From Cyanidioschyzon merolae (Eukaryota): a stretch of 64,000 nucleotides of DNA. Where the stretch lies: NCBI GenBank assembly GCA_000091205.1, contig AP006489.2; one strand, 5' to 3'. Under the pieces are notes generated by a model. The model searched no databases, had not been told where the DNA came from, and saw only the letters and a list, made by a program, of their open reading frames with translations. Shown here in pieces: positions 1-64,000 of the stretch. The translations under genes and the position numbers were made by a program. Each line of letters begins with the position of its first letter. Position 1 is the stretch's first letter.

Positions 1-2638
1 CCACCTCGTTGAACAAGATGACGAACGCACTGTTCTTGACTTTGTGCAATCGTTACTGTTGGTGGCCAGAGCGTGGTCTCATGTACACGCCCAAGAAATC
101 GCCCAATCATCCATCAAGACGCTCGTGTATTCTCTGAATCGTAGAATCACATCGATCAGTCGAACGAGTTATGGTACGCGATGGGGAACGTACAACGCCA
201 ACGGGGTGTGCTTCATAAATTGCTCGATTTTCGGAACGTATTCCTTGTTGAATTGTTTCAGAGGAACGGGATGTACGACGATTTCAGAATGGTACTTCAG
301 CTCCGACACTTTTTCTATATCTCCTGGTCATTTTGTGGAAGAATCACTGTTATCTTCGTACGGCGCTTGCTTTGACTCGTTCTCTTCCTGGCCGGGTAAC
401 ATGGGTGCATGCGCTTTACTACATATCCGTATTATTCCGTGGTATTTTTGCACAACGGGTGATCCCTCGCACTGAATCTCGCCTATTGCATAGGTATATC
501 TACAATGGTTTAAATACGCTCTCGTCATCGTAACCGTCGCGAGTACGTCCACAGATCGGAACGCGGCGTGCCGCTTTCCTCATGCACGAGAAAAGATGTA
601 GCGGAGTAGTTCAGAATAGGTAAAGATACAGAAAAATTCGTGTAGGGGCTGAAGTATGGAGATTAATACAATTCTCGGTTGATCCGCGAGCGTGAGAATT
701 GCGTTTGACAACAGGGAGAACGGCTTTCTCTCGATTTATCTGGGGAGAAACAGCTAAGACGAAGAGCAGCTTAACGCCAGTCTCAGCCGCGCACTCCTTG
801 ATCGCTTTTTAGTGATGAAAAGGGACGTTCTCTAAGAGCAAGAGACAGGAATATGCGATGGGGTAGCCTCGATGCGTGCTTCAACGAAGGATGAGATGCC
901 GCATGATCCACTTCTTTGGGGAGTTGTAGGCGGGCACACGACAGTATCGACATTATGACTGAAGTTGTCGTCATTCTCGCTTGCTTCTTTTTAACGAGCA
1001 GAATTTTGACCCTTTTTGAGTACCCATGTAGAGTTCAATCAAATATCCCGAAAAAGATCTCATCGAGTGAGAAGAATGCGCGCCGATCCCGCAAGAAGTG
1101 TTGGCGTTGCAGCACGAAGACGTTCGTGTGTTCTTCCACCCGCAACGGTCTCTCACAGCAGCGAACTATCTTTTTTCGTCCGTTCATGTCTCTTCATCAT
1201 TATGCATATCGACGGTATGGAATCTTTAATTATGTATCTTAATTGACAGTATTTTCTAGAGAACGCTTTTCGTGGAATGCTTTGACGAAGTCACCGTCCT
1301 GAAGATAGGAACTAAGAAGTTCTGCCTCGGGTGCACGACGTTCAGATTAAGGATGCTGAGAAGGATTGCTCACCTACCTGCCTAATCAAGAATGACCGAC
1401 ATGGAAAAGCAGCGCCGATTTTCGGAAGCTAGCTGTGACAGCGTGCGTCTTTCGGCGAAACTTTTCCAGTCTATAGGATACGTCACTTTTACTGAATGTT
1501 TGCAAGAAATAGCAAACAAAAACAAATAGGATATGCAGGTATAGGTGCTCCAGAATACACTGCTCGGAATATAACAGTGGCATCCCGAACGGATCCATGC
1601 ATCGGCGGCTGCATTTCCGGAATAGCACTTGCGAGACACGACGCGGCCGTGTTGATCAATGGTGAACGCTTTCCGTGTGCTTTCGGCCTCTGTGAATGGC
1701 GCACACGCTCTAGTGCGTCCAAGAAATGATGGGTTTTATGCAGGTCAACGCACTCAATGTCCCGCATAGGTGAGAGTCTTTACGGATAAGCGGTTTCCGT
1801 TATCGACCCGGTCAGGCGTGAACAACCCGATACGATTACGCTCCGCACAGTATTTTTACATGCTGCCCGCATGTTTTCTAGATGGCCTGCCCATGCCAGT
1901 AAGCATGCAAAAAAGACTCGTATTCGGATGCGAATGTTTCGAGAAAGATCCACCACAAAAAAGCTTGAAGCGTTTCAGTGGCGCAGTTTGCTACTCATGC
2001 ACACGTGGAAGCTCGTCGAGACGAGTCTACCTAGGCCGCGCATTCTATGCAGAAACTCACCCTCTGATCAAGTTGCTTTCCGCACCATCATCAGATGGCC
2101 CTGTGCATGCAATGAAGGATGACGAAATACACAAAATCGGATGCAGACGGTATGCGCCGGTCGTCGAAAGCCAAACAAGCTCCAAACCGATCAAGTGAAG
2201 GAGTCAAGCTTGATCGCTCCCGCCATGCGCCCCGCCCTGACCTCGCAGTGGACACAAAGCACTCCGAGGAAACAGCATTGTTTCGTGACCGACGTGCAAA
2301 CCAGCCCGCGTTGCTGGCGATCGCGTGCATGTGTAGCATACTGAGTCTTGGGATACGCTTCCGTCCTATGCAGATCCGAATGGAACCGGGAGCAGTATAA
2401 GGACCGTGCCATTCTCGCCATATGCTCCGCCAAGGCCGGTATCCGAACGTCTTTGCCAACCATTCGCGAAACAAGAACCCAGTATTGACTGGAGTCGCAG
2501 ACCAGTCGGGTCCCCTAGGCGAAAACTTTGTATAATATGGACAGGAAAACTGCCGCGCCGCCTTTCGCACCAGCGCTGGTGCCTTGACACTCATGAACGA
2601 CGCCTGATAGCTGTGCAATCCGACAGCTTGTTTGTGAT

Positions 2639-2896
2639 CTACACTTTGGCATCTGCACGCGATGATGAGGTTTGCGATTTTACCTGCTCAAGCTGCGCCC
2701 GCAAGCGCTCCAGTTCCGTCTCCACTCGCAGAGCGCGCTGGTCCACGTTGTGAATCTCCTCCTCCATACCACTAAAAGTCTCGCGGACGAGCGCGTTTGC
2801 CTTCAAAATATCATAGTGCAGGCGCAGAAACCCAAGTCCACCAGTAACCGTTGCACCCAAACAGAAAGCTGCGAGCCTGGAACGAAAGCTTGCCAT
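2639..2896 (-). CDS. small hypothetical protein (one TM helix then a coiled coil), about 85 aa
   Basis: Sub-ORF of the 2639..3151(-) track ORF, starting at MASFRSRLAAFCLGATVTGGLGFL (hydrophobic helix) followed by a heptad-like EEIHNVDQRALRVETELERLRAQLEQ. No family recognised. Lies in an otherwise ORF-poor region. Confidence 0.2.
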   Translation of the reverse strand: MASFRSRLAAFCLGATVTGGLGFLRLHYDILKANALVRETFSGMEEEIHNVDQRALRVETELERLRAQLEQVKSQTSSSRADAKV

Positions 2897-5439
2897 GGTA
2901 GTGTCAGTAGACAACTGCGTTGCCAGTGCTGCCGCGTTGCTGGCGACACGCCCGCCATTGCGTTGCGCGCTATGCCCACATGGCGTTAAGATCGGTGTGC
3001 TCTCGTCTTTCCACTCAAGTCTGTGACACTCCTGCTGCGCTTTAGAGCAGGGGATCGAAATCATGAAGCAATGTACAGTATAGAGCGTAGACGAATTGCG
3101 TGTAGGGTATATTTTTTTAATGAACAGTTCAAGAAAGACCGCATTCCTCATTCGGTTGAGTCATAACCCAGTACTCAGATGAATGACGAGCACAGAAAGA
3201 GGATATGCGCTCCGCGCCAAAAATCGATACGCTCAAAGACTGGGTGCGGTCAATGGCAGAAAACGAGTCGTCGATCACCTTGCAGAATGCAAACGTGTCG
3301 ATAGTAGCCGCGACGGTAGTCTCTGTTTCTCAAGTGCGTGTTCGTGTGCTCTGAAAGACTGGGATACAGTCTCAAAAAAGGAGTCCTAGTTCACGCACGA
3401 ACAGCTTTGACCGAAATCGCAACTACAACAAAGTTCCTCGAGAGTTGCCATCGATATGAAGCACAGCAACGTCGATTTCTTTTTCCAGACGATGAGAGTT
3501 TCTTCAGATGAAACGGTTGGAATGTATTTGGGTATTCGCGGAGAAGGAGCCATTTTAATATACGATGGAGCTCGAAGAGAAGGCTAGTACAACGGCACCA
3601 ACCACTTTGTCGGATCATAGCAGACTTTTCCCTTGACGTCTAATAATACCCTTCTATGGGACAACGTGGTATTTCACCATTCCTCTTCCGTTTGAGCATT
3701 TGCAGATTATATCGGGCAAGAGCTGCTTTTCATTCTTCCGTAAACTCCGCGGTTCAACCCCAACGAATGAAAGTTTCATATCGTGAAACGAAAGGATCGC
3801 TCCGCTGGGCGCATTGCTGGAGCGCTCAGCAAACTATGCCACACACAGAGACATATTTTTGTCTTTCTTCCACAAGTCTTTCACCATCCAAGCAGGTCCT
3901 CACCTTAAGACATAAACAAGTGCATTCATTCTCGAGAAATAAAAAAACCAAGGCATGAGCTCGTGTGCAGTCTTCAGAAGATCGAGACGAAGAGCAGGCA
4001 ACGGAGTTCTTCGATGATAGACAAGCACGGAGAGGCGACAGAGCACCAAATGGCATAGAGGGCGCGACTTCAAGGAATACTCGCTTTGGTGAGTCTAAGC
4101 AGTGGCAATAACCCCTTGAGTTCGAGAACCGAGAATTTAATGCAGCTATTTATATCAGGAAATGTGCGGTGCCTAGGACGAGACCCGCGGAGCTGATACG
4201 AGACAAGTTTGTGGAGCAGTCTCTCGAGGTCGAATCGTAAAAGGAGAAACTGAAGCCGATCGCAGGATCGGTCGAAAAAGGCTGGGAGTCGTCTGTACTT
4301 AGGTATTAACTTACCCTACGTAGTTGCGCGACCTGTTTGTTTCACTGGCATGTATGCTCTAGCGATAGCCCGTACGTTCCGCAGCAATATTACTGGGAGT
4401 GAAAAAACAGCAGGCAGTCATCGAACGTTCGGGAGCGTATGAATGGCAGGGTACGGTTAAGCTCAAGGTTCGGCGCTTGCACAACTCCATAACGGCGAGG
4501 GTCGTGCCAGTGATCCGACAGGGTACACCAGCTGGCAGTATGTGATTTTGTCATGCGCCCCGATCCTGCCAGGCGAAATGCAAGGGTCAGCCGTCAAGGT
4601 ACATTTAGACGCAGCATGCGCGATGCCTCTACCAAGATCACCGGATCCGTCGAACGAAGCAGACACCATAAGTTAGACAACGACGGCAGCATGGCAATAT
4701 ACTGAACTGTCATCAGTGCCCGCCGATGACGCCGGATAAAAGCAGAATTCAAATCTGTTCCTCATTCCAGCGTCCGTGCGGCATGCATAACAAGAATCGG
4801 GAATAAACGTATATTATTCGTACTCGGGTACACGACTACACCTACTTTGTGTACGATAAATACAACTATCGAAACTCCTAATGACTAGGTTGATGCATGC
4901 CTTACCCACAAAAGCGCAAGATGCTACGATGGCTACGCGTGTGCTGGAGTCATCGCTGAGTTTTGTGCCAGGCCCCAGCATCCCCTTGTATGCTAGGGTA
5001 GTACGGCGATGGGCAGTAGTTTCGGCACCAGCGACAGAGCCGAGCGCAGGAGATCACTCTACGTGAGTTTCCGATCTAGGACACCTGATTTCCGATGCAG
5101 TGCGTCGGTGAGAACACGCATGTGCTAATGCGACGTCGGACACGTGTCCTTCATCGATCCGTGTAGCGTCTCGCGCGGTGCACGCATCGCGGTCAGTGAG
5201 TGCACCTGGCAGAGCTGGCAGTAGTCAACTGGCACGACGCGCACGCCGCCGCCGTTGAAGGGAAACGCGATCTTGATCAGTTGCGTGTCGTTCAGCTGTA
5301 AAAGTCAGATTTTCGTGAGCTTCATATCCAAGTATAGTTTTGATTTCAATTGTGTTTCAAACCTCAAACAAGTGTATTCAAGCGTTTTTTCGCAGTATAT
5401 AACAGAAGCGTTCAAAGAACGTTCTTTTTCAAAAAAAGT

Positions 5440-7750
5440 CTAAAAAAGGAAAGTTATGAAAAAGCAAGTCGACGATCCTGGAGGCCCAGGGTCGCCGGCT
5501 GCCAGAGAAAAAAAACAAAAAACAGTGCCGAGTCCGGAAAAAAAGGAAGATAAGAAGGACCGAAGAGGGGAGGCCCTACGTCGAAGGCGGCAAGAAAGAC
5601 ACCTGTACGACGAAATGGTAGTGAAAGCCGGTCTTCTTGGACATATCAAGGATTCGTACAGGGAAAAGTTGCGAGGCGCCATCAAAAAACGTGCCTAGTC
5701 GTACTCCAAGCGTATTGCCAGGGCGTCGTCAGGACTGATGCATTTGGCGAGGGAGATGTATCGCGATGTGACGCACATGGAAACAGTCGAGATTCCAGAG
5801 GGAGTTTTCGGCAACCTTTATTCGACACCTGATGGTTGGCGCAGGGAACACGCGGAGGGAAAATGTGCTAGTGCATGCCCTCCACGAAAAACACCCCTTT
5901 TACAGCTTCGAGGGTACTCGCTACAAGGGTGACCGGGATATGTACACCTACGGGGCGAAGAAGTACCTCACGAACCTGAAGAACCATCTGACAATGGACC
6001 TCGAACGTTTCATGATACGCGCCGTGGTTGCACTCTACCCGCGCATCTCTCGCAATGGAAAATGGACGATTATCAATGGCATCATGAAAGATCGCAAGCG
6101 TGAAGATGAGGTCGAATTTGTCGACAAGAAGGCGTCAAAAGTGAGCACGAATGAAGCTTCTGCGATCCGTACGGTTATACAAGAGCATCGTGCGGTACTG
6201 GGGCTACCGAATCCAACAGACAAGGTATCAGAGTTGAGCAAAGATCAGGAAAGATACGATCGCCTCATTCTGTGCTATTTCGTGTTTCTGGACCGAGAGC
6301 TCGAAGGCAAGGCAGCGGTGATGCTGCGTGAAGAGACAAATGAAGAGTGGGAGAGACGGAAGGATTTCCTAATGGGGAAGCGCTTCAACGTAGTCCCATT
6401 GTCCAATATCAAGTCACATTTTGGGACTATCGACTCCGGAATCCTTCATGGCATCATGAAGGAGATCTGTTCGGAGTTCAACGTTAGCAGGGAGGACTTC
6501 GCCGGCGAGAACCGGGAGACGTACTGGAAGAATATCTTCAATTTTAAACGTCTGAGAGTGAGCAAGCAAAACTTGTTCACTTTGATGATTGAAACCGATG
6601 GAGTAGCCTTGTGTATACACTATCGGCGGTTGAAGAGAGCCCGGCCAGTCCCTCCCTCGGCTGCGCCCGTCACGAAGGATGAAGACAAGGAGAAGGCGGG
6701 TCCTGCGACGCAGGAGGTAGAGGATAACGACCTTGTCGTTGGCGCAGCGAAGCATGAGGAAAACAAAGAGGAGGATCCTGCGACGCAAGAGGTAGAGAAT
6801 AACGACTTTGTCGTTGGCGCGGACCCCGGAAACACAAATATCATAACCATCGCAGTACCCCAGCGTGCGGAATACGGTACGCACAGTAAATTACGTCAGA
6901 ACGACATGCGTCGTTTGAGGTTCTCGAGAGCGAGATACTACCGAGAATCCGGTATAATGAATGCAAGGAAGAAAATCGAGATAGAGAATGCTGGATTGAA
7001 GAAGCACCTGGAAGCTATGAGCAAGGTGACGAGCCGCGCAGCGGACTTTGAAGCTTTTCTGAAATGCATGGATGTTCATGTTGCTCCTTGGGAGGCGCTG
7101 TGGGAAGAGTATACAAAGCCCCGGTGGGCTCGTTTGCGTATGAATCCGTATTGTGGTAAGCAGCGGGCGTTCGCGAATTTTTTCAATGAGTTGAGTGCCT
7201 TGAAGGAGCATGAAAGTCAGAGGCTCGTAGTAGCATACGGAGCGGGGCGCTGGAAGACCCACAAAGGGACTCCGCCAGCTCCAACGACAAGAACGTACAA
7301 GGAGAATGCACGGCGTTTTGTTACGATACGGATAGATGAGTTCCGAACGTCCGATACACACCGTGAGCTGGAGTGTACACTTCAAAGGGTCGAGATGGAA
7401 AAGCGCCAGGGGAGTCCTGAAGACATAGCAAAGTACGGACCGCTGCCGGAGGTGCAAATGGAGAGGAGAACAAAAGTGCGAGGGCTACTCGCATTCGTAA
7501 GTACAACCAACGACGGCAAGAAACGTATGCGGTTTGTGAACCAAGACTTTAACGCCGCCGTCAATATACGGAGATGCGCGGCGATTGAGAAAAGACCTCC
7601 ACAGCAGACAAGAGAGAACTTTGTTGGACAACCTCTCAAAGTCCAACTATATGAGAAAAAGTTGAAACCAGTGGTGGGTGGCCTGCCCAGCAAGGCTGGG
7701 ATGCGTCTGCCCGTCAGCTGGAGACTGCTTGTCCGGGGCGCGTTCGCCGC
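5440..7750 (+). mobile_element. Fanzor/TnpB-like (OMEGA-type RuvC nuclease) transposon-derived element, copy 1. Boundaries approximate.
   Basis: Nucleotide and protein homology to a second copy at 62180..63986 starts near 5440. The encoded protein has a K/R-rich N-terminus, '[17 protein letters not shown]' (GxDxG, RuvC-I-like, Asp near 6822), 'FFNEL' (candidate RuvC-II Glu near 7188), 'RRFVTIRIDEFRTSDTH..EC' (TnpB-like '..P.YTS..C..C' zinc-finger lead-in, Cys partly replaced) and 'RMRFVNQDFNAAVNIRRCAA' (canonical TnpB/Fanzor RuvC-III, Asp near 7545). The right end is not defined. Confidence 0.6.
5456..7680 (+). pseudogene. Fanzor/TnpB-like nuclease coding region, interrupted (copy 1)
   Basis: Track ORFs 5456..5698 and 5738..5932 are in the same frame, separated by a single TAG at 5696-5698. 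A +1/-1 frameshift near 5825 then joins to the 5832..9404 ORF. Copy 2 reads continuously across that second point, so these are lesions or sequencing errors. The RuvC-like motifs downstream are intact, and Met5832 could still give an N-terminally truncated product. Confidence 0.55.
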
Positions 7751-7829
7751 CACTACTGTGCACCACTGGCGGCAGCGTTTTTCTTTAGACAGGCTTTTGT
7801 TTTCGCTGCCGTCGTCCTCCAGAAGCAAA

Positions 7830-9404
7830 ATGAACGCTGAACCAGGTGTTCCCAACTCGGACCACAACCGCACACGACAAATGCCTGGTGGGAACACAAC
7901 CGAGCAGGACGCACTCGCCGATCGCTTGCTTCGCTTTCTCGATGCGTCACCGTCTCCGTACCACGCAGTCGAGACCGCAAAACTGCTTCTAGAAACAGCT
8001 GGCTATACTGAGCTTCGGGAGGACTGTTCCTGGTTGGGGCGAGTTCATCCCGGAGGACGCTATTATACGACACGCAACGAGTCAACAATCGTTGCCTTTC
8101 GAGTGGGGCGAGCGTTTCACGTCGACGCGGTGAACGGCGGTGAGCTCCGACTCGTTGGCGCGCACACCGACTCGCCGTGCTTTCGAGTCAAACCACGAAG
8201 TCGCGTGAGCGACGCAAATTATGAAAAAGTTGCAGTCGAGTGCTACGGGGGCGGCCTCTGGTACACCTGGTTCGATCGCGACCTCAAGTGTGCTGGGCGG
8301 GTCATCTGGCGCTGTGCGTCCCCAACGGACCCGGCACAGGGCACCAGCCGATCGACCAGTTGGCAGTGCACACTCGTTCATGTACGGGAACCCATTTTGA
8401 GAATTCCATCATTGGCAATCCACTTAGATCGAGAAGTGAATCAGGGCTTCGCCCCGAACCGACAAACGCATTTGGTGCCGGTTGCCGCCACCGCATTGAA
8501 CAGAACAAAGTTGCCACAGTGTCAAGAGCGCCATGCCACTGCACTTACGGGAGCAGTTATTCACACTCTTCAACAGGACATCATGCCCGTTAAAGAAGAT
8601 CCGATGAGCATCACGCGTGATGCAGGCGGTATCGTTATTCATGACTTTGACCTCTGTTTGGCAGACGCACAGCCAGCGAGCATTGGTGGCGTTCAGCGGG
8701 AGTTCATCTTCGCTTCGCGTCTAGACAACCTGTTTTCCTGTTTCGCGGCACTCGAAGCGCTCCTCTCCCTGGATTCCGAGGCTGGGGTGGAAAGCGGTGC
8801 CGAGTCGGCGGTCTGCATGGTTGCGCTTTTCGACCATGAGGAGTGCGGTAGCGGTAGTGCGCAAGGCGCTGCGTCTCCGCTTGTCAGCGACCTGATTCGA
8901 CGTGTTCTAGCGTGTTTATGGACGGGGAAAACGGATGCAGGCGCTTTCGAGGACGCTGTTCAATACACGATCCGCCGCTCATTCTTGATCAGTCTCGATA
9001 TGGCGCATGCTGTCCATCCAAACTACGCGGAAAAGCATGAGAGTGGCCATCAGCCGCTCTTAGGCCATGGCCCTGTTCTGAAAGTCAACGCAAACCAGCG
9101 GTATGCAACTGACGGGTGGAGCGCTCATCTCCTCCGCGCTGTTGCCGAATGCTGTGATTCACCTATACCGCTGCAGGAGTACGTTGTGCGGAACGATATG
9201 CCTTGCGGCAGCACCATTGGACCCATTGTAGCTGCTGGTACCGGCGTACGAACTGTTGATGTAGGTGCACCAAGTCTTTCAATGCACTCGATTCGGGAAA
9301 TGGCGCATGTACGAGATCTATGGTACACCGTCAAGCTTTTGCAAGCGTTCATGCGATGTTTCGGTGAGGTCCGGGCGTCGCATAATACAGCGTGCGTGAC
9401 GTAG
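7830..9404 (+). CDS. aspartyl aminopeptidase (peptidase family M18)
   Basis: 'LLRFLDASPSPYHAVETAKLLLETAGYTEL', 'LRLVGAHTDSPCFRVKP', 'GGGLWYTWFDRDL', 'LFDHEECGSGSAQGAAS', 'SLDMAHAVHPNY' and 'MPCGSTIGPI' are the hallmark M18 (DNPEP/Ape4) blocks. The start is chosen at MNAEPG (7830); MPGGNT (about 7881) is an alternative. The track ORF 5832..9404 fuses this gene in-frame to the upstream Fanzor-like element. Confidence 0.8.
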   Translation: MNAEPGVPNSDHNRTRQMPGGNTTEQDALADRLLRFLDASPSPYHAVETAKLLLETAGYTELREDCSWLGRVHPGGRYYTTRNESTIVAFRVGRAFHVDAVNGGELRLVGAHTDSPCFRVKPRSRVSDANYEKVAVECYGGGLWYTWFDRDLKCAGRVIWRCASPTDPAQGTSRSTSWQCTLVHVREPILRIPSLAIHLDREVNQGFAPNRQTHLVPVAATALNRTKLPQCQERHATALTGAVIHTLQQDIMPVKEDPMSITRDAGGIVIHDFDLCLADAQPASIGGVQREFIFASRLDNLFSCFAALEALLSLDSEAGVESGAESAVCMVALFDHEECGSGSAQGAASPLVSDLIRRVLACLWTGKTDAGAFEDAVQYTIRRSFLISLDMAHAVHPNYAEKHESGHQPLLGHGPVLKVNANQRYATDGWSAHLLRAVAECCDSPIPLQEYVVRNDMPCGSTIGPIVAAGTGVRTVDVGAPSLSMHSIREMAHVRDLWYTVKLLQAFMRCFGEVRASHNTACVT

Positions 9405-19800: not shown

Positions 19801-20385
19801 ACGTACCAGATCGATCGATGAATCGCTGCGCGGGAGGCGTCTGACCTGCAAGATCAATCGAAAAGCAACTTGTTCTGGATATTTATGTATAAATAGGATT
19901 TTACTGGATGATCCTGACGTACCAGATCGATCGATGAATCGCTGCGCGGGAGGCGTCTGACCTGCAAGATCAATAGGCAAGCAACTTGTTCTGGATATTT
20001 ATGTATAAATAGGATTTTACTGGATGATCCTGACGTTACGATCGATCGATGAATCGCTGTGCGGGAGGCGTCTGACCTGCAAGATCAATAGGAAAGCAAC
20101 TTGTTCTGGATATTTATGTATAAATAGGATTTTACTGGATGATCCTGACGTTACGATCGATCGATGAATCGCTGTGCGGGAGGCGTCTGACCTGCAAGAT
20201 CAATCGAAAAGCAACTTGTTCTGGATATTTATGTATAAATAGGATTTTACTGGATGATCCTGACGTTACGATCGATCGATGAATCGCTGTGCGGGAGGCG
20301 TCTGACCTGCAAGATCAATAGGCAAGCAACTTGTTCTGGATATTTATGTATAAATAGGATTTTACTGGATGATCCTGACGTTACG
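19801..20385. repeat. minisatellite: about 5 tandem units of 114-118 bp
   Basis: Unit 'acgt(t)ac(ca)gatcgatcgatgaatcgctg(c/t)gcgggaggcgtctgacctgcaagatcaat(c/a)g(a/g)aaagcaacttgttctggatatttatgtataaataggattttactggatgatcctg'. Units begin at 19801, 19919, 20033, 20148 and 20263. It lies between the 5' ends of the divergent USP and TrpRS genes. Confidence 0.9.
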
Positions 20386-37461: not shown

Positions 37462-39345
37462 ACCAGGAAGCATCTGGAAGCGCATTGTTCAGCTGCATGT
37501 CAGTGATGCACATGCATAAACGGACGTATGCATACGTACGAACAGGAAGCATCTGGAAGCGCATTGTTCAGCTGCGTGTCAGTGATGCACGTGCATAAAC
37601 GGGCGTATGCATACGTACGAACAGGAAGCATCTGGAAGCGCATTGTTCAGCTGCGTGTCAGTGATGCACGTGCATAAACGGGCGTATGCATACGTACGAA
37701 CAGGAAGCATCTGGAAGCGCATTGTTCAGCTGCATGTCAGTGATGCACATGCATAAACGGACGTATGCATACGTACGAACAGGAAGCATCTGGAAGCGCA
37801 TTGTTCAGCTGCGTGTCAGTGATGCACATGCATAAACGGACGTATGCATACGTACGAACAGGAAGCATCTGGAAGCGCATTGTTCAGCTGCGTGTCAGTG
37901 ATGCACATGCATAAACGGACGTATGCATACGTACGAACAGGAAGCATCTGGAAGCGCATTGTTCAGCTGCGTGTCAGTGATGCACGTGCATAAACGGGCG
38001 TATGCATACGTACGAACAGGAAGCATCTGGAAGCGCATTGTTCAGCTGCGTGTCAGTGATGCACGTGCATAAACGGGCGTATGCATACGTACGAACAGGA
38101 AGCATCTGGAAGCGCATTGTTCAGCTGCGTGTCAGTGATGCACGTGCATAAACGGGCGTATGCATACGTACGAACAGGAAGCATCTGGAAGCGCATTGTT
38201 CAGCTGCGTGTCAGTGATGCACGTGCATAAACGGGCGTATGCATACGTACGAACAGGAAGCATCTGGAAGCGCATTGTTCAGCTGCATGTCAGTGATGCA
38301 CATGCATAAACGGACGTATGCATACGTACGAACAGGAAGCATCTGGAAGCGCATTGTTCAGCTGCGTGTCAGTGATGCACATGCATAAACGGACGTATGC
38401 ATACGTACGAACAGGAAGCATCTGGAAGCGCATTGTTCAGCTGCGTGTCAGTGATGCACATGCATAAACGGACGTATGCATACGTACGAACAGGAAGCAT
38501 CTGGAAGCGCATTGTTCAGCTGCGTGTCAGTGATGCACATGCATAAACGGGCGTATGCATACGTACGAACAGGAAGCATCTGGAAGCGCATTGTTCAGCT
38601 GCGTGTCAGTGATGCACATGCATAAACGGGCGTATGCATACGTACGAACAGGAAGCATCTGGAAGCGCATTGTTCAGCTGCGTGTCAGTGATGCACGTGC
38701 ATAAACGGGCGTATGCATACGTACGAACAGGAAGCATCTGGAAGCGCATTGTTCAGCTGCGTGTCAGTGATGCACGTGCATAAACGGGCGTATGCATACG
38801 TACGAACAGGAAGCATCTGGAAGCGCATTGTTCAGCTGCGTGTCAGTGATGCACGTGCATAAACGGGCGTATGCATACGTACGAACAGGAAGCATCTGGA
38901 AGCGCATTGTTCAGCTGCATGTCAGTGATGCACATGCATAAACGGACGTATGCATACGTACGAACAGGAAGCATCTGGAAGCGCATTGTTCAGCTGCGTG
39001 TCAGTGATGCACATGCATAAACGGACGTATGCATACGTACGAACAGGAAGCATCTGGAAGCGCATTGTTCAGCTGCGTGTCAGTGATGCACATGCATAAA
39101 CGGGCGTATGCATACGTACGAACAGGAAGCATCTGGAAGCGCATTGTTCAGCTGCATGTCAGTGATGCACATGCATAAACGGACGTATGCATACGTACGA
39201 ACAGGAAGCATCTGGAAGCGCATTGTTCAGCTGCGTGTCAGTGATGCACATGCATAAACGGACGTATGCATACGTACGACCAGGAAGCATCTGGAAGCGC
39301 ATTGTTCAGCTGCGTGTCAGTGATGCACATGCATAAACGGACGTC
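37462..39345. repeat. 79-bp tandem satellite, about 24 units
   Basis: Unit 'gaacaggaagcatctggaagcgcattgttcagctgc(a/g)tgtcagtgatgcac(a/g)tgcataaacgg(a/g)cgtatgcatacgtac'. The period of 79 was measured between 37541 and 37620. Three SNP positions define unit types that recur in blocks, giving a higher-order structure. It occupies the gap between the convergent THOC2 and COPB1 3' ends. Confidence 0.95.
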
Positions 39346-43354: not shown

Positions 43355-44097
43355 AGGGATGGAATATTTTTGGTTTGACAAAGCGATTCCGTGTAGCCTG
43401 GATCCTAGATGGCGGAATAGATATCGGTATTCGGCAAAGCGTCTACCGTGCAGCGCTCTAGCTCCCAGTTCCATGACCCATACCTCCTCTCGGATATGCT
43501 GGTCGTTCCGTACGTTCTATCGTTTCTTGGCACTGCCGTTTGGGTTGTGTTCCGCGTGAGTACAACAACTGCCAGTGGATACACAGGTGTCGCTCTCCGC
43601 GCATCATCGCCGGGATTGTCCCAAGTCACAGACTAGTCACAGACTAGACGGCAGCTCTCAGAGAGGCACCTTGATGCCCAGTGCACGTGCTGGACATGCG
43701 CAATGACAGTGTACTCATGAAGCGCTAATCATCTCTCCAAAAGAAGCTTTTCGGAGTTCTGCATACTTAGCGGATTCTAGAAAAGACGATTCCCCAGAGA
43801 TGGAGCAATCGTTTCTCTCAATATTGTACTCGAGCGCGACGAGAAAAACCTGCTTGCAGAGTCGTACGTTCGAGCATCCGAAGCGGCAGCGCACTTTTTC
43901 CATGTCATCTCCAGAACGGCCTCGACTCTGTGTTGCGAACGGAAAGCTGGGGGTGCCTCGATCCCGATCGTTTTAGAAGACGCTGCTTGCCCTGCTTTCC
44001 TGGGCAGAGTACGTGCCTTTGGTCGTGATCCAACGAATCGTCTTTACGGTCTCAGATTGGCCGCTCGCTCTCGTTCATCCACCAGAACCTGTTTCAG

Positions 44098-48224: not shown

Positions 48225-48300
48225 ATGCGATTTTTTTCATTGACAAAACGTTTACTTAGGCCAGCGTTCTCCGATTATGCGCTTTTTTGTTTCTTTCTTT
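48225..48300. repeat. member 1 of an 85-bp direct repeat pair (second member at 49330..49405)
   Basis: 'gatttttttcattgacaaaacgtttacttaggccagcg(t/c)tctc..attat(g/a)cgcttttttgtttcttt', more than 90% identical between the two positions and followed by T-rich tracts. Both lie in the 3-kb gap between the divergent GH36 and GT4 genes. Confidence 0.7.
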
Positions 48301-49329
48301 TTTTTTGTGTAATAATCTGTATGAGATCGCCGCAGCGCATGTGGCTAGGTGTGATCTGCTGTGCGCCTTCGATGGCGTCTGTCCATGCGCATTGGTGTGC
48401 CTCAATCAAGGAGAACGCTGCCCTGCTTGCCCCATTCCTATTCATCGATCATTTTTCCAACTATTAAGGGGTATATCTTTTATATTCGAAGCGTGACTGT
48501 AAGAGCTTATGGATACATATGTAGTTCTGGGATTCGTGGTCGTTTTTCCGAGTGGATCCTTCGACACTTTGAGGCAGCAGTTCGATACATCATTAGAGTC
48601 AGGATTATTCGTGACGATCCTATAACATGGGCTCGTAAAATCACCGATATCATGATCGAATTCATATGTACGAGCTTCCAAGCTTCTTTATTGCCTACAT
48701 ATAGAATGCTCAGAGCACGCACTCCCCAGGTTATTGATCGTCCCCTGTGGAGGCAACTCGTGGGCGCACCAAAACGCACCGCTGGATTGACGGGATAAAA
48801 CAACGCGACATCGTCCTTAGGCGATGTGAAAACAAGCCTATGCCGACGTTTCACTAAAGTTGTCATGTATAAGGATCGATTTTGTTCGAAAGACTAGTTC
48901 TTCTGTCGTTTTTGCTTTCGATGAGACGGCATTCGATATCTGCTCGATACATCTCAGTGGATATGCTTCCAGAGGCTCCCGTCTCTTCTGTTTGAATTGG
49001 ATACGTTCTGGACTCGTACATTAGTCCCCCGCACGGTCGCTTCGAGTGGAGCCTGCGTCACCGTATTTCGCGAAGGACGCGTAGACAAATCGAAATGTCT
49101 CGATTTGTCCCCCAAACTCGCTTTTCGATTCGGTAAGTTTTGCCTCACGGAACACATCGCGTGTCACGGATCCTTTATCGAACAATAGATCATGCCCTTG
49201 CGCGTGCGCTAAGTGGATTAGTCGCCGAGTGCTTCGCCCAGAGAAAGCGCATGACCTGAAGGCACAGACTCTGCACGAAAGCAGAGTAAGGCGATCAGGT
49301 TCGCCTTCTGTACTCGTCGAAAGTATGCA

Positions 49330-49405
49330 CTGATCGATTTTTTTCATTGACAAAACGTTTACTTAGGCCAGCGCTCTCGAATTATACGCTTTTTTGTTTC
49401 TTTTT
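49330..49405. repeat. member 2 of the 85-bp direct repeat pair
   Basis: See 48225..48300. Confidence 0.7.
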
Positions 49406-50465
49406 CTTTTCTTTTCCTACTTTTTTGTGTTTTTTCAGTGCGCGGTGAAGTATCCATCAAACACCCTACCTCCATGTTACATTACCTATACTTCGTCTCG
49501 GATATTCTGGTCGTTTCATACGTCCTATCGTGTGTGCCTAGAACCTGCCTTTCTGTATCCGCCTTTGCACCTGAACCGCTCGAGCAGATAGTTCGTAGAG
49601 CTAGAACAGCATTTCTATACCATAGAGGGCGTCGGCTCGAGGGGTGCTTCACCCGACATAGAATCGGGTCTCGTCGTCGGTTTGTGCTCGGACAGTCCGC
49701 GAATGTAGGCTTGGCTTCGCTGCACGACACGCTGGAGAAACTTGCTGTTAGTATGAATCCTGGGAGCCGCCTCTCTCCTTCGTGATCATGCATGGAATGC
49801 GTCGTTGGTTGGCAACGCGGGTTTGTGCTTGACACCCACCAGTGGGTAGGCGCAGAAAGCGCACTGGGCCCGTGTGCGCATCCGATTCGCTGGACCTTAT
49901 GCCTAGAAGGTAGATGCACCGATCGATGAGACGAGCGTTCACGCGCCGTACGTCATTGCTCGACGGAGACGTGTAGCTGGAGTTGTGTGAACACCCCAGC
50001 ACGCCCAGGCGCCTCCGCTTCGAAAGGCTTACCGATCCTGTATACAAAAAATGAAAACAGCAAGTAAAGCATCCATTGGAACATGCATCTTCGCATAAAA
50101 TGTGTAGGAATCAGACACCATTGACGAAAGTCGTACTCGATCGCTCCCATCAACATTCCTCGACTGCTATTAATGGAGCTGGAGGGAACGAAGAGACGAC
50201 CGATTTCTAAGCCCGATATAAGACAGACGGATTCTAATCTGTTCATAAAAAAGCCAGCATATGCTCGTGTTTATCATAGTGGCACGAATTCAAAACATGA
50301 GCGCATTCGTGCGTTCCCCCTGAATAGAGACGCTCCATCGATATCTGACTAATGCGCATCGCGCGCGTTCCGCATTGCCAGGGCGCAGCTGAATGCACCA
50401 CGCTGAAAATCTGTGGTGGATACGAGAGGATACCGGGTAGGCGCGTCTGAATTCGGCATTTGTAG

Positions 50466-60244: not shown

Positions 60245-62179
60245 AGAGCAGTATGATCTAGTTTTGCGCTCGTGGGTATACCCTGGACATCGTGTAAGCG
60301 TTGCTCATCAGAAGAAGCGCGGGATATGCTGTTGGATTGTGCGGGATACCTGATTGTCGACATCGAGCGCGCTCTAGAAAGGTACGCTATGACCGGTCGT
60401 GTAACGCTCCTTCTCGCAATTGGCCAGGGGAGCTCCGGCGTATATCGCGTCGCTCATCCCAAATATATGTGACTGTTCACGATGATAGCCCATCATGGGG
60501 AACTTTTTATCCACCGCTCGGCCGTTCACTTGGAATCGAGCGTAAGATGCTGCTGTGCGTGATCTATTTGTGAGAAAGTTCCCGTGCATGTCCTAGTAAC
60601 TCTACAGCTGCTGGTGGTGCTTCAGGAACATGTTGGGTTAGGATTTGGCCGAACGAACGTTCGGAGAGGACGAAAATCGATAGCTTTATGGAAGAACTTT
60701 AAAGGATGAGAAGCGCATTTGAAACGATCGCGCGTTTCCGCCTTCTTGGTACAGCGATATGCTCACCTTGAGAAGAGATATCCACGGGTAGCTACGGCCA
60801 CATGCAAACAAGGGCGGCAACTCGACCAGTTTGCGCACGAGATCCTGGGCGCATGCCTTCACCGCATAAACTCATGCTTCACTTTCTAACACGCTCCTCT
60901 GACTTTTTTCCATGGTCTAAATCCACGATCCTAACCAGATTTCCTCTGGAGGCGCTCACGCCACAACGGAAAACGAAAGAGACCTCAGTGATTCCATTCT
61001 ATGGCTGTTCCATGAAATGACGCACTTGCCCACGATCGGAGACTCTGTCGAGGGAAACGCGAATTATACAAGGAGGGCACTCAAGGCCACGGTTTTCCAC
61101 GGCTGGCGTACACAATCCGGGACCCAAAAAGTGGAATGGCTGAGGTGGCTATGGGCAGTAGCCGCAAGCTCCCGAGCACCTGTAGATTCTTTTAGTCCTT
61201 CGACTCAACTTTGTTTCACCATTGATATATTGTATAGCAGGAGATCGAAATCTTTACGCAATATACCGTTTAGACAGCAGACGGATCGCATTTAGGATAT
61301 ATATGTTCCTTTACGAACAATGCAAGGAGGACTGCATTCCTTTTTCAGCTCAGTCATACCACAGTACTCCGATGGCCCAGGGACTCCGAAAGAAAGAATT
61401 ATGTGCGCTGCGCTCTAAAAAACTGCTACTGTCCGAGCGTGCTCGTAGACAATGGTAAAAAAATTGCCCGATAATCACCCCACGAAAAGCAAAAGTGGCG
61501 GTAGATGCACTAATAAGCGTCTTTGTTTCTCAACTGCCAGTTCATGTGATCCTGAAACACTGGGATACAGTCGCAATAAAAAGTCGAAGATCGCGCTCGG
61601 CAATTTTGCATAGACATCGCAACCACAGCTTTCCTGGTATTCAGCGATCGGTTTGAAGTAGAGGGACGTCGGTTTGGTTTTCAGTCGATTGAACTTGCTT
61701 CGAACGAAACAATCAGAGCGCCCTTGGGTATTCGAGGAGACAGGCACCCATTGTATGTACGATCGAACTCGAAGAGAAGAACAACATCATCCGTTCGAGC
61801 TGCAGTGGATTCATTCGGCAGCCTCAGTTTCGCTCATAGAGACGGCTCATAAAACAACGCCCAGTACTCGCTCGAATCATTGAAGACTTTTCCCTGACGT
61901 TTGGCGATGTGCTTCTATTGGACATCATGGCGCCCCATCATTCCCCTTGCGTTCGAGCTTTTTGCAGATTGTATTGAGGTAGGGCTGCTTTTCATTCTTC
62001 CATACGCTCCATGGTTTATCCCCATCGAAGGAGCGTTTTCTGTGGCAAAAAGTAATGATTGCTTCGCTGGGTGATTCCTTGAACCTTTGATCACGATGAC
62101 ACCGGAACACATCTCGTTTTTCTTCCACAAAAGCTTCACCCTTGGAAACGTCTTCATATAAGGGCTTGAAGGGAAGTTT

Positions 62180-63986
62180 TCATTTTCAAAAAGTAAAAAA
62201 TCCAAGGGAGAGCTGTGTACATGGAACTGGAGGATCCTGGAGGACCGGTGTCGCCGGTTGCACGAAAAACCCGCAAAGCAGAGCCAAGCAAACAGGAACA
62301 GGCGAAGACAAAGAAGGAAAGGCCGGAGGCCCAACGCCAGATGCTGCAAGAAAGCCGACTGTACGACGAGATGGTGGTGAAAGCCTGTCTTCCTAAGCAT
62401 ATCAAGGATCCCTAGAGGGAAAAGTTGCGAGAGGGTATCAGCAAAACGTGTCGACTCGTACTCCAAGAGTACCGTCAAGGCGTCGTCAGGACTGATGCAT
62501 TTGGCGAGGGAGATGTACGAAGACGTGGCGCACATGGAAAAGGTCGAGGTTCCGGAAGAGGTTTTCGACAAGACGTTTATTCGTCACCTGATGCTTGGTA
62601 CAGAGGAAACGCGGAGGGAAACTGAGCTACTGCATGCCCTCCACGAAAACTTCGTGGAATTCCGCTTCGAGGGTACCCGATGCAGGGGTGACCGGGATAT
62701 TTACACATATGGGGCGATGAAGTACATCACGAACCTGAAGAACCATTTGACAGTGAACCTCGAACGTTACATGATACGCGCCTTGTTTGCACTCTACCCG
62801 GGCATCTGTCCCAAAGGAATATCAGCGATTATCAATGGCATCACGCACGATCGCAAGCTTGAAGATGACATCGAATTTGTCGACAAGAAGGCGTCAAACC
62901 AGAGCACGAATAAGGTGTCCGTCATCCGTGCGGATTTACAAGAGCACCGTGCAGTCATGGAGCTGCCGAATCCAACAGACAAGATATCAGAGTTGAGAAA
63001 AGATAAGGGAAGATACTATCGCCTCGTCCTGCTGTATTTCGTGGTTTTGGACCGAGAACTCGAACGCAAGGCACAGGTGAAGCTGAGTGGGGGAAAATGA
63101 AGAGTGGGAGAGACGGAAGGCTTTCCATATGGGGAAGCGCTTCTACGTCGTTCTAATGTGCACCATCAAGTCACATTTTGTGACTATCGACTCCGCAGTC
63201 ATTCATGGCATCATGAAGGAGATCAGTCCGGAGTTCGATGTTAGCAGGGAGGAATTCTCCGGTGAAAACCGGGAGACGTTCTGGAAGAACATCTTCGATT
63301 TCAAACGTCTGAGGGTGAGCAAACAAAAGGTACTCACTGGGATGATCGAAACCGATGGAGTAGTCATGTGTGTACACTATCGGCGGTTGAAGAAAGATCG
63401 TCCAATCCCCGCCTCGGCGAACCATGAAGATGAGAAGGAGGCGGATCCTGCGAAGCAGGAAGCGGAGGATAACGACTTTGTTGTTGACGTGACGAAGCAT
63501 GAAGATGAGATGGAAGCGGGTCGTGCGACGCAGGAGGTGGAGGATAACGACTCTGTCGTTGGCGCAACGAAGCATGAAGAAAACAAAGAGGAGGATCCTA
63601 CGACACAGAAAGTGCAGGATAACGACTTTGTCGTTGGCACGGCGAAGGATGAAGATGAGAAGGAGGCGGGTCCTGCGACGCAGAGAGTGCATGCGAACGA
63701 CTTTGTCGTTGGCGCGGACCCCGGAAACACGAATATCATCACCATCCCTGCTCCCAAGCGTGCGGAATATGGTACTGATGGCAACTTATGTCAGAAAGAC
63801 ATGCGACTTTCGAGGTTCTCGAGAGCGAGATACTCTCGAGAATCCAGTATAATGAAAGCAAGGAAGAAAATCGAGACGTGGAATGCTAGACTGAAGGAGT
63901 ACCTGGAAGTTTTGAGCGAGGTGACGAGCCGAGGAGCGGACTTTAAAGCTTTTCGGAAATTTATGAAAGTTCGCGTTGCTCATTGA
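62180..63986 (+). mobile_element. Fanzor/TnpB-like element, copy 2 (runs to the window edge, 3' part missing)
   Basis: Homologous to 5440..7750 at both nucleotide and protein level. Compare 62215..62415 with 5456..5698 ('LYDEMVVKA..HIKD'), 62495..63100 with 5738../5832.. ('MHLAREMY..', 'ELLHALHENF', 'YTYGAMKY(I/L)TNLKNHLT') and 63087..63986 ('[18 protein letters not shown]', 'SRFSRARY'). Confidence 0.6.
62215..63986 (+). pseudogene. Fanzor/TnpB-like nuclease coding region, interrupted (copy 2)
   Basis: Frame change and stop between 62415 and 62495 (copy 1 is in-frame across the equivalent point apart from one TAG). Stop and frameshift at about 63100, where copy 1 is continuous. The ORF ends with a stop at 63984-63986, where copy 1 continues. 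Confidence 0.5.
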
Positions 63987-64000
63987 GATGCACTGTGTGA

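Follow-up and report, generated by a model that had tools for sequence, protein, structure and literature searches.

The window, i.e., the whole 64-kb stretch of DNA that was analysed, belongs to chromosome 7 of Cyanidioschyzon merolae 10D, and nine of its proteins are exact full-length matches to BAM79567 and BAM79570-79577 (CMG-series locus tags). At one edge of the window (62179-64000, + strand) lies a pseudogene of a Fanzor1 element of the CMe-1 family (hereafter copy 2), which shows 84-89% identity to the CMe-1A consensus in blastn (86.5% in a global alignment) and corresponds to consensus positions 876-2479. The window edge cuts the element at consensus position 2479 of 3169, and the 3' remainder lies beyond the window. 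The start codon of its Fanzor ORF (MELEDPGGPVSP...; 62221-62223, +) aligns to the consensus ATG at 906. Aligned to the consensus, the frame is broken by a nonsense mutation at consensus codon 67 (TAC to TAG; 62413-62415, +), a +1 frameshift due to a 1-nt insertion (~62442, +) and a further frameshift due to a 2-nt deletion (~63093-63094, +); the global alignment revealed another nonsense mutation at consensus codon 520 (TGG to TGA; 63984-63986, +). Inside the ORF and just upstream of RuvC-I, TRF found an in-frame tandem array of 4.0 units of a 75-nt repeat encoding an acidic 25-aa unit (63418-63716, +), and in the AF2 model of a relative (P0001, see below) the equivalent region is predicted to be disordered, with pLDDT < 50 at residues 375-471. 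The RuvC-I motif GADPG with the catalytic D is located at 63711-63725 (+), in a column that is invariant in our family alignment (A2). Copy 2 shows RuvC-I only, because the window edge cuts the element. It begins at consensus 876 and is immediately preceded by the decayed gene of a DDE_3 transposase (DD34E, Tc1/mariner/IS630-type; 61236-62126, +). No orthologous metagenome locus was recovered for copy 2.

A second CMe-1 Fanzor1 pseudogene (copy 1) occupies 5233-7810 (+), comprising consensus positions 689-3168 (5233-7794) plus a conserved tail of ~15 nt. Its identity to the consensus is 84-88% in blastn and 85.8% overall in the global alignment; its Fanzor ORF starts with an ATG at 5456 (MAFFT alignment), and on reading of the sequence the copy retains the motifs RuvC-I, -II and -III (6816-6830, 7335-7349 and 7545-7559, +). 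Its lesions relative to the consensus are a GAG codon changed to TAG at 5696 and the loss of 2 nt at ~5814. Furthermore, the stop codon of copy 1 has been lost, which is why the ORF at 5832-9404 continues in frame into the gene of an aspartyl aminopeptidase (annotated start 7830). The 75-nt repeat is present in two units, versus 4.0 in copy 2 (TRF). L001, an ortholog from an environmental sample (98.5% identity to copy 1), shares both the TAG and the 2-nt deletion and has one further deletion, so the inactivation of copy 1 predates the divergence of these strains. Upstream of copy 1, an alternative 5' non-coding module ('module B'; 4536-5232, +) displays 74-79% identity to the sequences that precede the Fanzor ORF in six loci (L007, L026, L028, L050, L052 and L064). 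Module B stands in place of the TE-N2_CMe-like 5' 650 bp of CMe-1A, and copy 1 itself begins at consensus 689.

The two copies that had originally been predicted in the window are both real, and to these we add a third, more decayed Fanzor fragment (3954-4298, +; consensus 2736-3086, 71% identity), which spans RuvC-II to the C-terminus. This fragment is fused, via a 1.8-kb internal deletion, to a second decayed DDE_3 remnant (3044-3947, +), recognised by homology and by a weak Pfam match (E = 0.018); together they make up an element that we refer to as X1. Elsewhere in the window, TE-N2-like fragments were observed at 43376-43523 and 49465-49668.

Assignment to the CMe-1/CMe-1A family

The Fanzor1 family CMe-1/CMe-1A was described from the C. 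merolae genome by Bao & Jurka 2013 (Mobile DNA 4:12; PMC3627910), and it is the one Fanzor1 family that their paper describes for this species. The CMe-1A consensus comprises 3169 bp and encodes a protein of 734 aa in a single exon (supplementary entry '734 (1)'); CMe-1 has ~150 genomic copies, each ~80% identical to the consensus, for which no TIRs were found, TSDs were not determinable and the class was given as 'unknown' (PMC3627910). The element TE-N2_CMe shares the 5' 635 bp of CMe-1A, and this module defines subfamily A (PMC3627910). We took the CMe-1A consensus DNA and the CMe-1 protein from the supplements of that paper as reference. In blastn, copy 1 and copy 2 match the CMe-1A consensus at 84-89% identity, and the published CMe-1 protein contains the same peptide blocks as the window copies. 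Genome and protein family are the same, and the level of decay fits the published ~80%. Consensus positions 1-650, which hold the 5' TE-N2_CMe module, are missing from copy 1 and copy 2 (blastn against CMe-1A); therefore, the two are members of CMe-1 but not of CMe-1A in the strict sense. Whereas CMe-1A carries the 635-bp TE-N2_CMe module at its 5' end, copy 1 has the other non-coding module and copy 2 a DDE_3 remnant.

Judged by their sequences, both copies belong to the known CMe-1/CMe-1A Fanzor1 family, and the finding as such is already known. The family is not new, Bao & Jurka having described it from the same genome in 2013. The expectation of a multi-copy family in the original prediction agrees with the ~150 genomic copies (PMC3627910) and with the 344 relatives found in metagenome contigs, and the consensus protein that the prediction put at ~730 aa has its counterpart in the published 734 aa.

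Relationship between the two copies

Copy 2 and copy 1 share 82.3% identity over 1259 nt (62325-63565 versus 5569-6820; blastn, E = 0) and 81.3% identity in an adjoining block (63567-63997 versus 6672-7102; blastn), and in the MAFFT alignment the homology reaches back to the start codons at 62221 and 5456. The predicted similarity of ~80% between the two loci is borne out by these values (81-82% identity, 62179-64000 versus 5569-7102), which are far beyond chance, and the peptide blocks that had been quoted were found in both copies. ORF maps and the alignment to the consensus likewise bear out the fragmented frames with different interruptions in each copy, and the proposal that the copies were inactivated separately is upheld by the differing lesions. 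The description as copies of the 'same element' is correct with respect to the family; the structure differs between them, with module B upstream of copy 1 and DDE_3 upstream of copy 2. It had also been asked whether any copy combines an intact ORF with conserved 3' non-coding sequence: a census of 80 metagenome loci revealed one near-complete ORF only (L002), and a non-coding 3' core was conserved across 47 3' ends. In the RuvC half, conservation among the copies amounts to 0.90 at codon position 1, 0.93 at position 2 and 0.79 at position 3; hence, much of the divergence arose under purifying selection in active lineages.

A local segmental duplication inside the 64-kb stretch, followed by divergence in place and without separate transposition, would be in keeping with the position of both copies on the + strand, 55 kb apart, and with a DDE_3 remnant somewhere upstream of each (3044-3947 and 61236-62126). 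However, the two copies have no flanking sequence in common, the DDE remnant in the vicinity of copy 1 is part of X1, which has its own Fanzor 3' fragment, and the module-B 5' region of copy 1 is missing from copy 2. Each copy has 86% identity to the consensus but only 82% to its counterpart, and, with both aligned to the consensus, not a single lesion is common to the two. Moreover, copy 2 is equally far from 74 other, unrelated copies (maximum 84.4%, median 81% identity) as it is from copy 1, which is the pattern that an old, star-like family would be expected to leave in its sequences. Differing 5' modules, flanks, lesions and repeat numbers largely refute a local duplication, which we regard as highly improbable, and independent insertions from an old family are favoured over it. 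It is scarcely credible that the interruptions represent introns or programmed frameshifts and that copy 2 is a Fanzor gene that is expressed and works. Introns do occur in the Fanzor genes of other eukaryotes, and the RuvC-I motif of copy 2 is intact, but the lesions of both copies are point substitutions, among them those creating stop codons, and 1-2-nt indels, with no intron-like insertions bearing splice sites, and they are copy-specific. In addition, the C. merolae genes in the window read as uninterrupted ORFs, and the consensus ORF was recorded as one exon ('734 (1)'; PMC3627910). Given the kind of lesions seen against the consensus, we reject introns or recoding as the source of the interruptions. 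We conclude that the sequences at 62179-64000 and 5233-7810 are almost certainly dead CMe-1 copies, which were inserted independently and then decayed neutrally. Neither window copy is able to make a functional protein.

Membership in Fanzor1

A Pfam-A scan of the window ORFs and their close homologs yielded nothing significant (PF07282 came up with E = 0.004-0.23), and single-sequence phmmer searches against PDB sequences gave no match. A database search recovered 75 homologs, the majority of them from hot-spring metagenomes of the JGI. Among them are intact proteins with 25-38% identity and a length of 600-700 aa, and many of the homologs bear the precomputed Pfam family PF26935 (DUF8286). 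We based a family profile on 15 sequences (alignment A2; homologs of 25-98% identity), in all of which the columns of the RuvC triad, D (DPG), E (DEFRT[ST]) and D (RDxNAAxN), are invariant. When this profile was searched against 177,635 PDB sequences (hmmsearch), there were two matches only, both to Fanzor1 proteins: PpFz1 from Parasitella parasitica (9CF0; 1.3e-16) and GtFz1 from Guillardia theta (9CER; 6e-5). An AF2 model was built for P0001, a near-intact relative with 68% identity, rather than for the broken window copies (mean pLDDT 75, pTM 0.67). In a Foldseek search of the PDB with this model, the top seven hits were Fanzor1 chains (SpuFz, PpFz, GtFz; E = 6e-17 to 8e-14), with a TM score of 0.69 for SpuFz (normalised to SpuFz), and Cas12 proteins ranked after Fanzor1 with E > 0.01; the model matches the Fanzor1 fold (WED/REC/RuvC/NUC). 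The agreement of profile and predicted fold supports the view that the CMe-1 element encodes a Fanzor1 protein, in line with the Fanzor-like character that had been proposed.

A CCCC zinc finger is conserved in SpuFz1 and TnpB (PMC10432273), and the C4 zinc finger is part of the Fanzor motif of Bao & Jurka (PMC3627910). Between RuvC-II and RuvC-III, where this finger was looked for, no conserved CxxC pairs were found among the 15 sequences of A2; some of them are without any Cys in this interval, and the finger is also missing from the published CMe-1 consensus. The missing zinc finger sets the clade as a whole apart and is no reason to place the family outside Fanzor1. DUF8286 (PF26935) corresponds to a Fanzor1 clade, a link that goes beyond the 2013 paper.

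The 3' end of the element

At the 3' end of copy 1 (7695-7794, +), we identified, from sequence only, a candidate omegaRNA or cis-acting 3' end, consisting of a coding segment AGTGGTGGGTGGC, a complementary non-coding core GCCGCCACTACT, and a terminal hairpin. Each position of the non-coding 16-mer CGCCACTACTGTACAC is kept in 40-47 of 47 distinct 3' ends, except for one position (38 of 47), and this core shows a 12-bp complementarity to the coding segment ~65 nt upstream. In the resulting long-range stem (P1), 83% of cells are paired; slides of +/-3 pair about equally (72% and 85%), because the sequence has a 3-nt periodicity. The terminal hairpin is kept in two registers, in two subfamilies, and individual 3' regions yielded folding z-scores of -1.3 to -5.8. 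With RNAalifold, the consensus energies of 44-52 3' ends were close to zero and no robust consensus structure emerged, an Rfam scan of window positions 7000-8000 gave no match, and the conservation of the 3' UTR (0.835) does not exceed that of the ORF. Taken as a whole, these features are suggestive of an omegaRNA at the CMe-1 3' end, and the 3' end would be compatible with an omegaRNA or with an end signal at the DNA level.

The DDE_3 transposase and the ancestry of the family

Upstream of both copies, the two loci share a further region of similarity (3319-3767 versus 61519-62029; 72-75% identity, blastn), which, when translated, resembled the C-terminal end of a DDE transposase. The DDE remnant at 61236-62126 is homologous to positions 3023-3905 of the metagenome loci L062/L063, to positions 8088-8954 of L068, and to 3044-3947 in the window. 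Single decayed DDE copies matched PF13358 with E-values from 0.018 to 2.3e-5, and a consensus of five copies matched it with 70 bits (E = 2.6e-19; cut-off 28.6 bits); the spacing D...D-34-E was read from this consensus. The same DDE-Fanzor junction, ~50 nt before the Fanzor ATG, recurs in copy 2, X1, L062/L063 and L068, i.e., at four independent loci, which differ in their outer flanks. In two intact Fanzor relatives, P0059 (38% identity) and P0073 (26%), a DDE_3 gene directly precedes the Fanzor gene in the same orientation. The P0059 element is ~3.6 kb long, encloses both genes within 28-nt TIRs (TACTCTGTATAC... / ...CATGAGTA), and has TA at either end in each of three different insertion sites; the 3' non-coding region of its Fanzor measures 181 nt. 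With the consensus of the C. merolae DDE remnants, the P0059 transposase shares 38% identity (E = 8e-54), so that transposase and Fanzor are equally diverged from their C. merolae counterparts (38% each). Around the DDE-type copies L062, L063 and X1 of the window, a search for TIRs gave 7-8-nt chance matches only, and at the 5' and 3' flanks of ~20 full-length copies no TSDs were found, only conserved extra-terminal motifs.

The DDE_3 remnant beside copy 2 might be an unrelated mariner-like transposon that was inserted next to, or nested with, the Fanzor element. The missing TIRs around DDE plus Fanzor in the C. merolae-type copies, the other 5' modules present in most copies of the family, and the clustering of transposable elements in this region of the genome would fit such a chance neighbourhood. 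We nevertheless consider it unlikely, because the junction is identical at copy 2, X1, L062/L063 and L068 despite differing outer flanks, and the gene order on one strand is kept in relatives at 26-38% identity. Furthermore, the unit of P0059 (~3.6 kb) holds both genes within a single TIR/TA boundary, and both its transposase and its Fanzor are 38% identical to the corresponding C. merolae sequences. The recurrence of the DDE_3-Fanzor junction, together with the intact relatives bounded by TIRs and TA, suggests that the 'unclassified' CMe-1 family probably descends from a mariner-type Fanzor carrier, which for the C. merolae copies we infer from such sequence comparisons. On the simplest reading, copy 2 retains the ancestral layout, in which Fanzor1 comes after a DDE_3 transposase of the Tc1/mariner type, and CMe-1A and the module-B form are derived, non-autonomous chimeras, if the clade was ancestrally carried by Tc1/mariner elements. 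The association of DDE_3 with Fanzor seen at copy 2 is not mentioned in Bao & Jurka 2013.

Discussion

The arrangement of copy 2 and of its intact relatives, a Tc1/mariner-type transposase followed by Fanzor1 on one strand, resembles that of PUl-1 and PGv-1, two Mariner/Tc1 elements that encode Fanzor1 in addition to a transposase (Bao & Jurka 2013, PMC3627910). PUl-1 from Pythium is 3620 bp long with a 24-bp TIR and TA, compared to ~3.6 kb, short TIRs and TA in the intact CMe-1 relative. In contrast to PUl-1 and PGv-1, the copies in C. merolae have decayed, neither TIRs nor TSDs are recoverable from them, and the PUl-1 Fanzor, as judged from the published DNA, has a CxxC...CxxC zinc finger that the CMe-1 clade does not possess. 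The best structural matches were SpuFz1 of Spizellomyces punctatus (PDB 8GKH, 9CEU-9CEZ), PpFz1 and GtFz1 (E ~1e-16), which share the RuvC D/E/D triad and align over 768-898 columns with the 752-aa query, at 12-16% sequence identity to the CMe-1 clade member. The CMe-1 clade differs from the SpuFz1 group in that it is without the CCCC zinc finger of the SpuFz1 NUC domain and has a variable insertion of acidic 25-aa repeats before RuvC-I; its omegaRNA is putative. Compared with bacterial TnpB of IS200/IS605 (e.g., ISDra2) and with the OMEGA systems, the order of the RuvC motifs is the same (D ... E-x-x-T-S ... R-D-x-N-A-A), and the putative guide RNA would likewise derive from the 3' end of the transposon. 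On the other hand, the CMe-1 host is eukaryotic, the protein is much longer, the transposase is of the DDE rather than the HUH (TnpA) type, and there is no significant direct sequence match (Pfam PF07282, E = 0.004-0.23).

An intact CMe-1 element would encode the 734-aa Fanzor1, presumably a RuvC endonuclease of the TnpB/Cas12 type. By analogy with characterised Fanzor1 proteins, this enzyme may associate with an omegaRNA, i.e., a guide RNA that the 3' end of the element would give rise to, and the complex with its guide may cut matching DNA. In bacteria, guided cutting by TnpB helps the transposon to persist. The DDE_3 transposase would have moved the unit of two genes by cut-and-paste. Taking these points together, we tentatively propose, although we are slightly more doubtful than convinced of the scenario as a whole, that the layout of copy 2 (DD34E transposase plus zinc-finger-less Fanzor1) is ancestral, that CMe-1 arose from a mariner-type transposon with two genes, and that DUF8286 is a deep Fanzor1 clade co-evolving with its own transposase, with intact members bounded by TIRs and TA in environmental eukaryotes.

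The main finding concerns two of the ~150 decayed CMe-1 copies that were catalogued in 2013 and carries little weight by itself. Three points are added to the earlier description: the link to DDE_3, the loss of the zinc finger throughout the clade, and the identification of DUF8286 as Fanzor1. The DDE_3 link provides a Fanzor family that had been left unclassified with a likely superfamily, of the Tc1/mariner type. The intact, compact relatives without zinc finger and with defined ends are candidate RNA-guided nucleases; if the mariner-type ancestry and the DUF8286 clade are true, the intact members would be candidates for an RNA-guided nuclease that functions independently of a zinc finger.

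Domain composition and internal repeats of the Fanzor1 family

The Pfam family DUF8286 (PF26935) is present in many of the homologous proteins P0001-P0075. Because these proteins are Fanzor1 both by profile and by fold, DUF8286 appears to be an unrecognised region of Fanzor1. In the two dead Fanzor1 elements of the window, the RuvC-I motif is directly preceded by an in-frame 75-nt repeat encoding an acidic stretch of 25 aa (window 6672-6820 in copy 1 and 63418-63716 in copy 2), whose number of units varies: one in the published CMe-1A consensus, two in copy 1, and four each in copy 2 and in the near-intact relative P0001. The 25-aa repeat, for which disorder is predicted, duplicates the NDFVVG strand located ahead of the catalytic aspartate. 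Repeats of another kind were found in the intact P0059-type element, where the spacer between the DDE_3 transposase and Fanzor genes (metagenome loci L083/L084, 1683-2009) holds five tandem 18-nt repeats (CGTCTCGACCATTTCG...) that are complementary to a site within the transposase gene of the same element.

Element boundaries, rearranged copies and other repeats

Conservation runs past both termini of the published CMe-1A consensus (metagenome loci L005, L029, L042, L045, L047, L074-L076, L082 and others; window 7795-7810), with a T-rich GATTTTTTTC upstream of position 1 and a GTTTGTTGTYG-like sequence downstream of position 3169. Probably, therefore, the consensus lacks 10-15 nt on either side, unless the element strongly prefers certain target sequences; no target site duplication was seen. 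In DDE-type elements, the sequence at the left edge of the DDE module (the decayed transposase remnant upstream of Fanzor) also resembles that of the 3' tail, in direct and not inverted orientation (window ~61195-61235 and ~4340-4360; L068 ~8010-8050; L071 ~6150-6190); TTTGTTTCAC and GTTT..G.TCCACT..CTG are examples. Insertion in tandem may account for this similarity, or the two ends may have signals in common.

A third element, X1, occupies window 3044-4298, and copy 1 lies directly downstream of it in a head-to-tail arrangement. It is made up of a decayed DDE_3 transposase remnant linked by a 1.8-kb internal deletion, with ATG microhomology at the junction, to the final 350 nt of a Fanzor ORF. 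Head-to-head pairs of family copies were observed in metagenome loci L010, L048, L051 and L059, in which reverse consensus 1 to ~1000-3145 adjoins forward consensus ~660-740 to 3145. Two TE-N2_CMe-like fragments (window 43376-43523 and 49465-49668), neither with a Fanzor ORF attached, match positions 4-150 and 84-282 of the CMe-1A consensus, with 77-80% identity to its 5' part.

The window further contains two tandem arrays, one with a 79-bp unit (37464-39344; 23.8 copies, 98% identity) in the interval that separates CMG046C from the coatomer beta gene and one with a 115-bp unit (19809-20385; 5 copies, 97% identity), as well as an 80-nt direct repeat (48228-48306 vs 49335-49415; 91% identity), which is not related to the Fanzor family.

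Copy 1 and the aspartyl aminopeptidase gene

The stop codon of copy 1 is gone, having changed from TAG to CGG near window 7728, and copy 1 consequently reads in frame into the gene for aspartyl aminopeptidase (BAM79567), forming an ORF of 1190 aa (5832-9404). The aminopeptidase starts at window 7830, and the 3' end of copy 1 lies only ~20-35 nt before this start codon; the promoter or 5' UTR of BAM79567 must therefore lie inside the transposon or span it.
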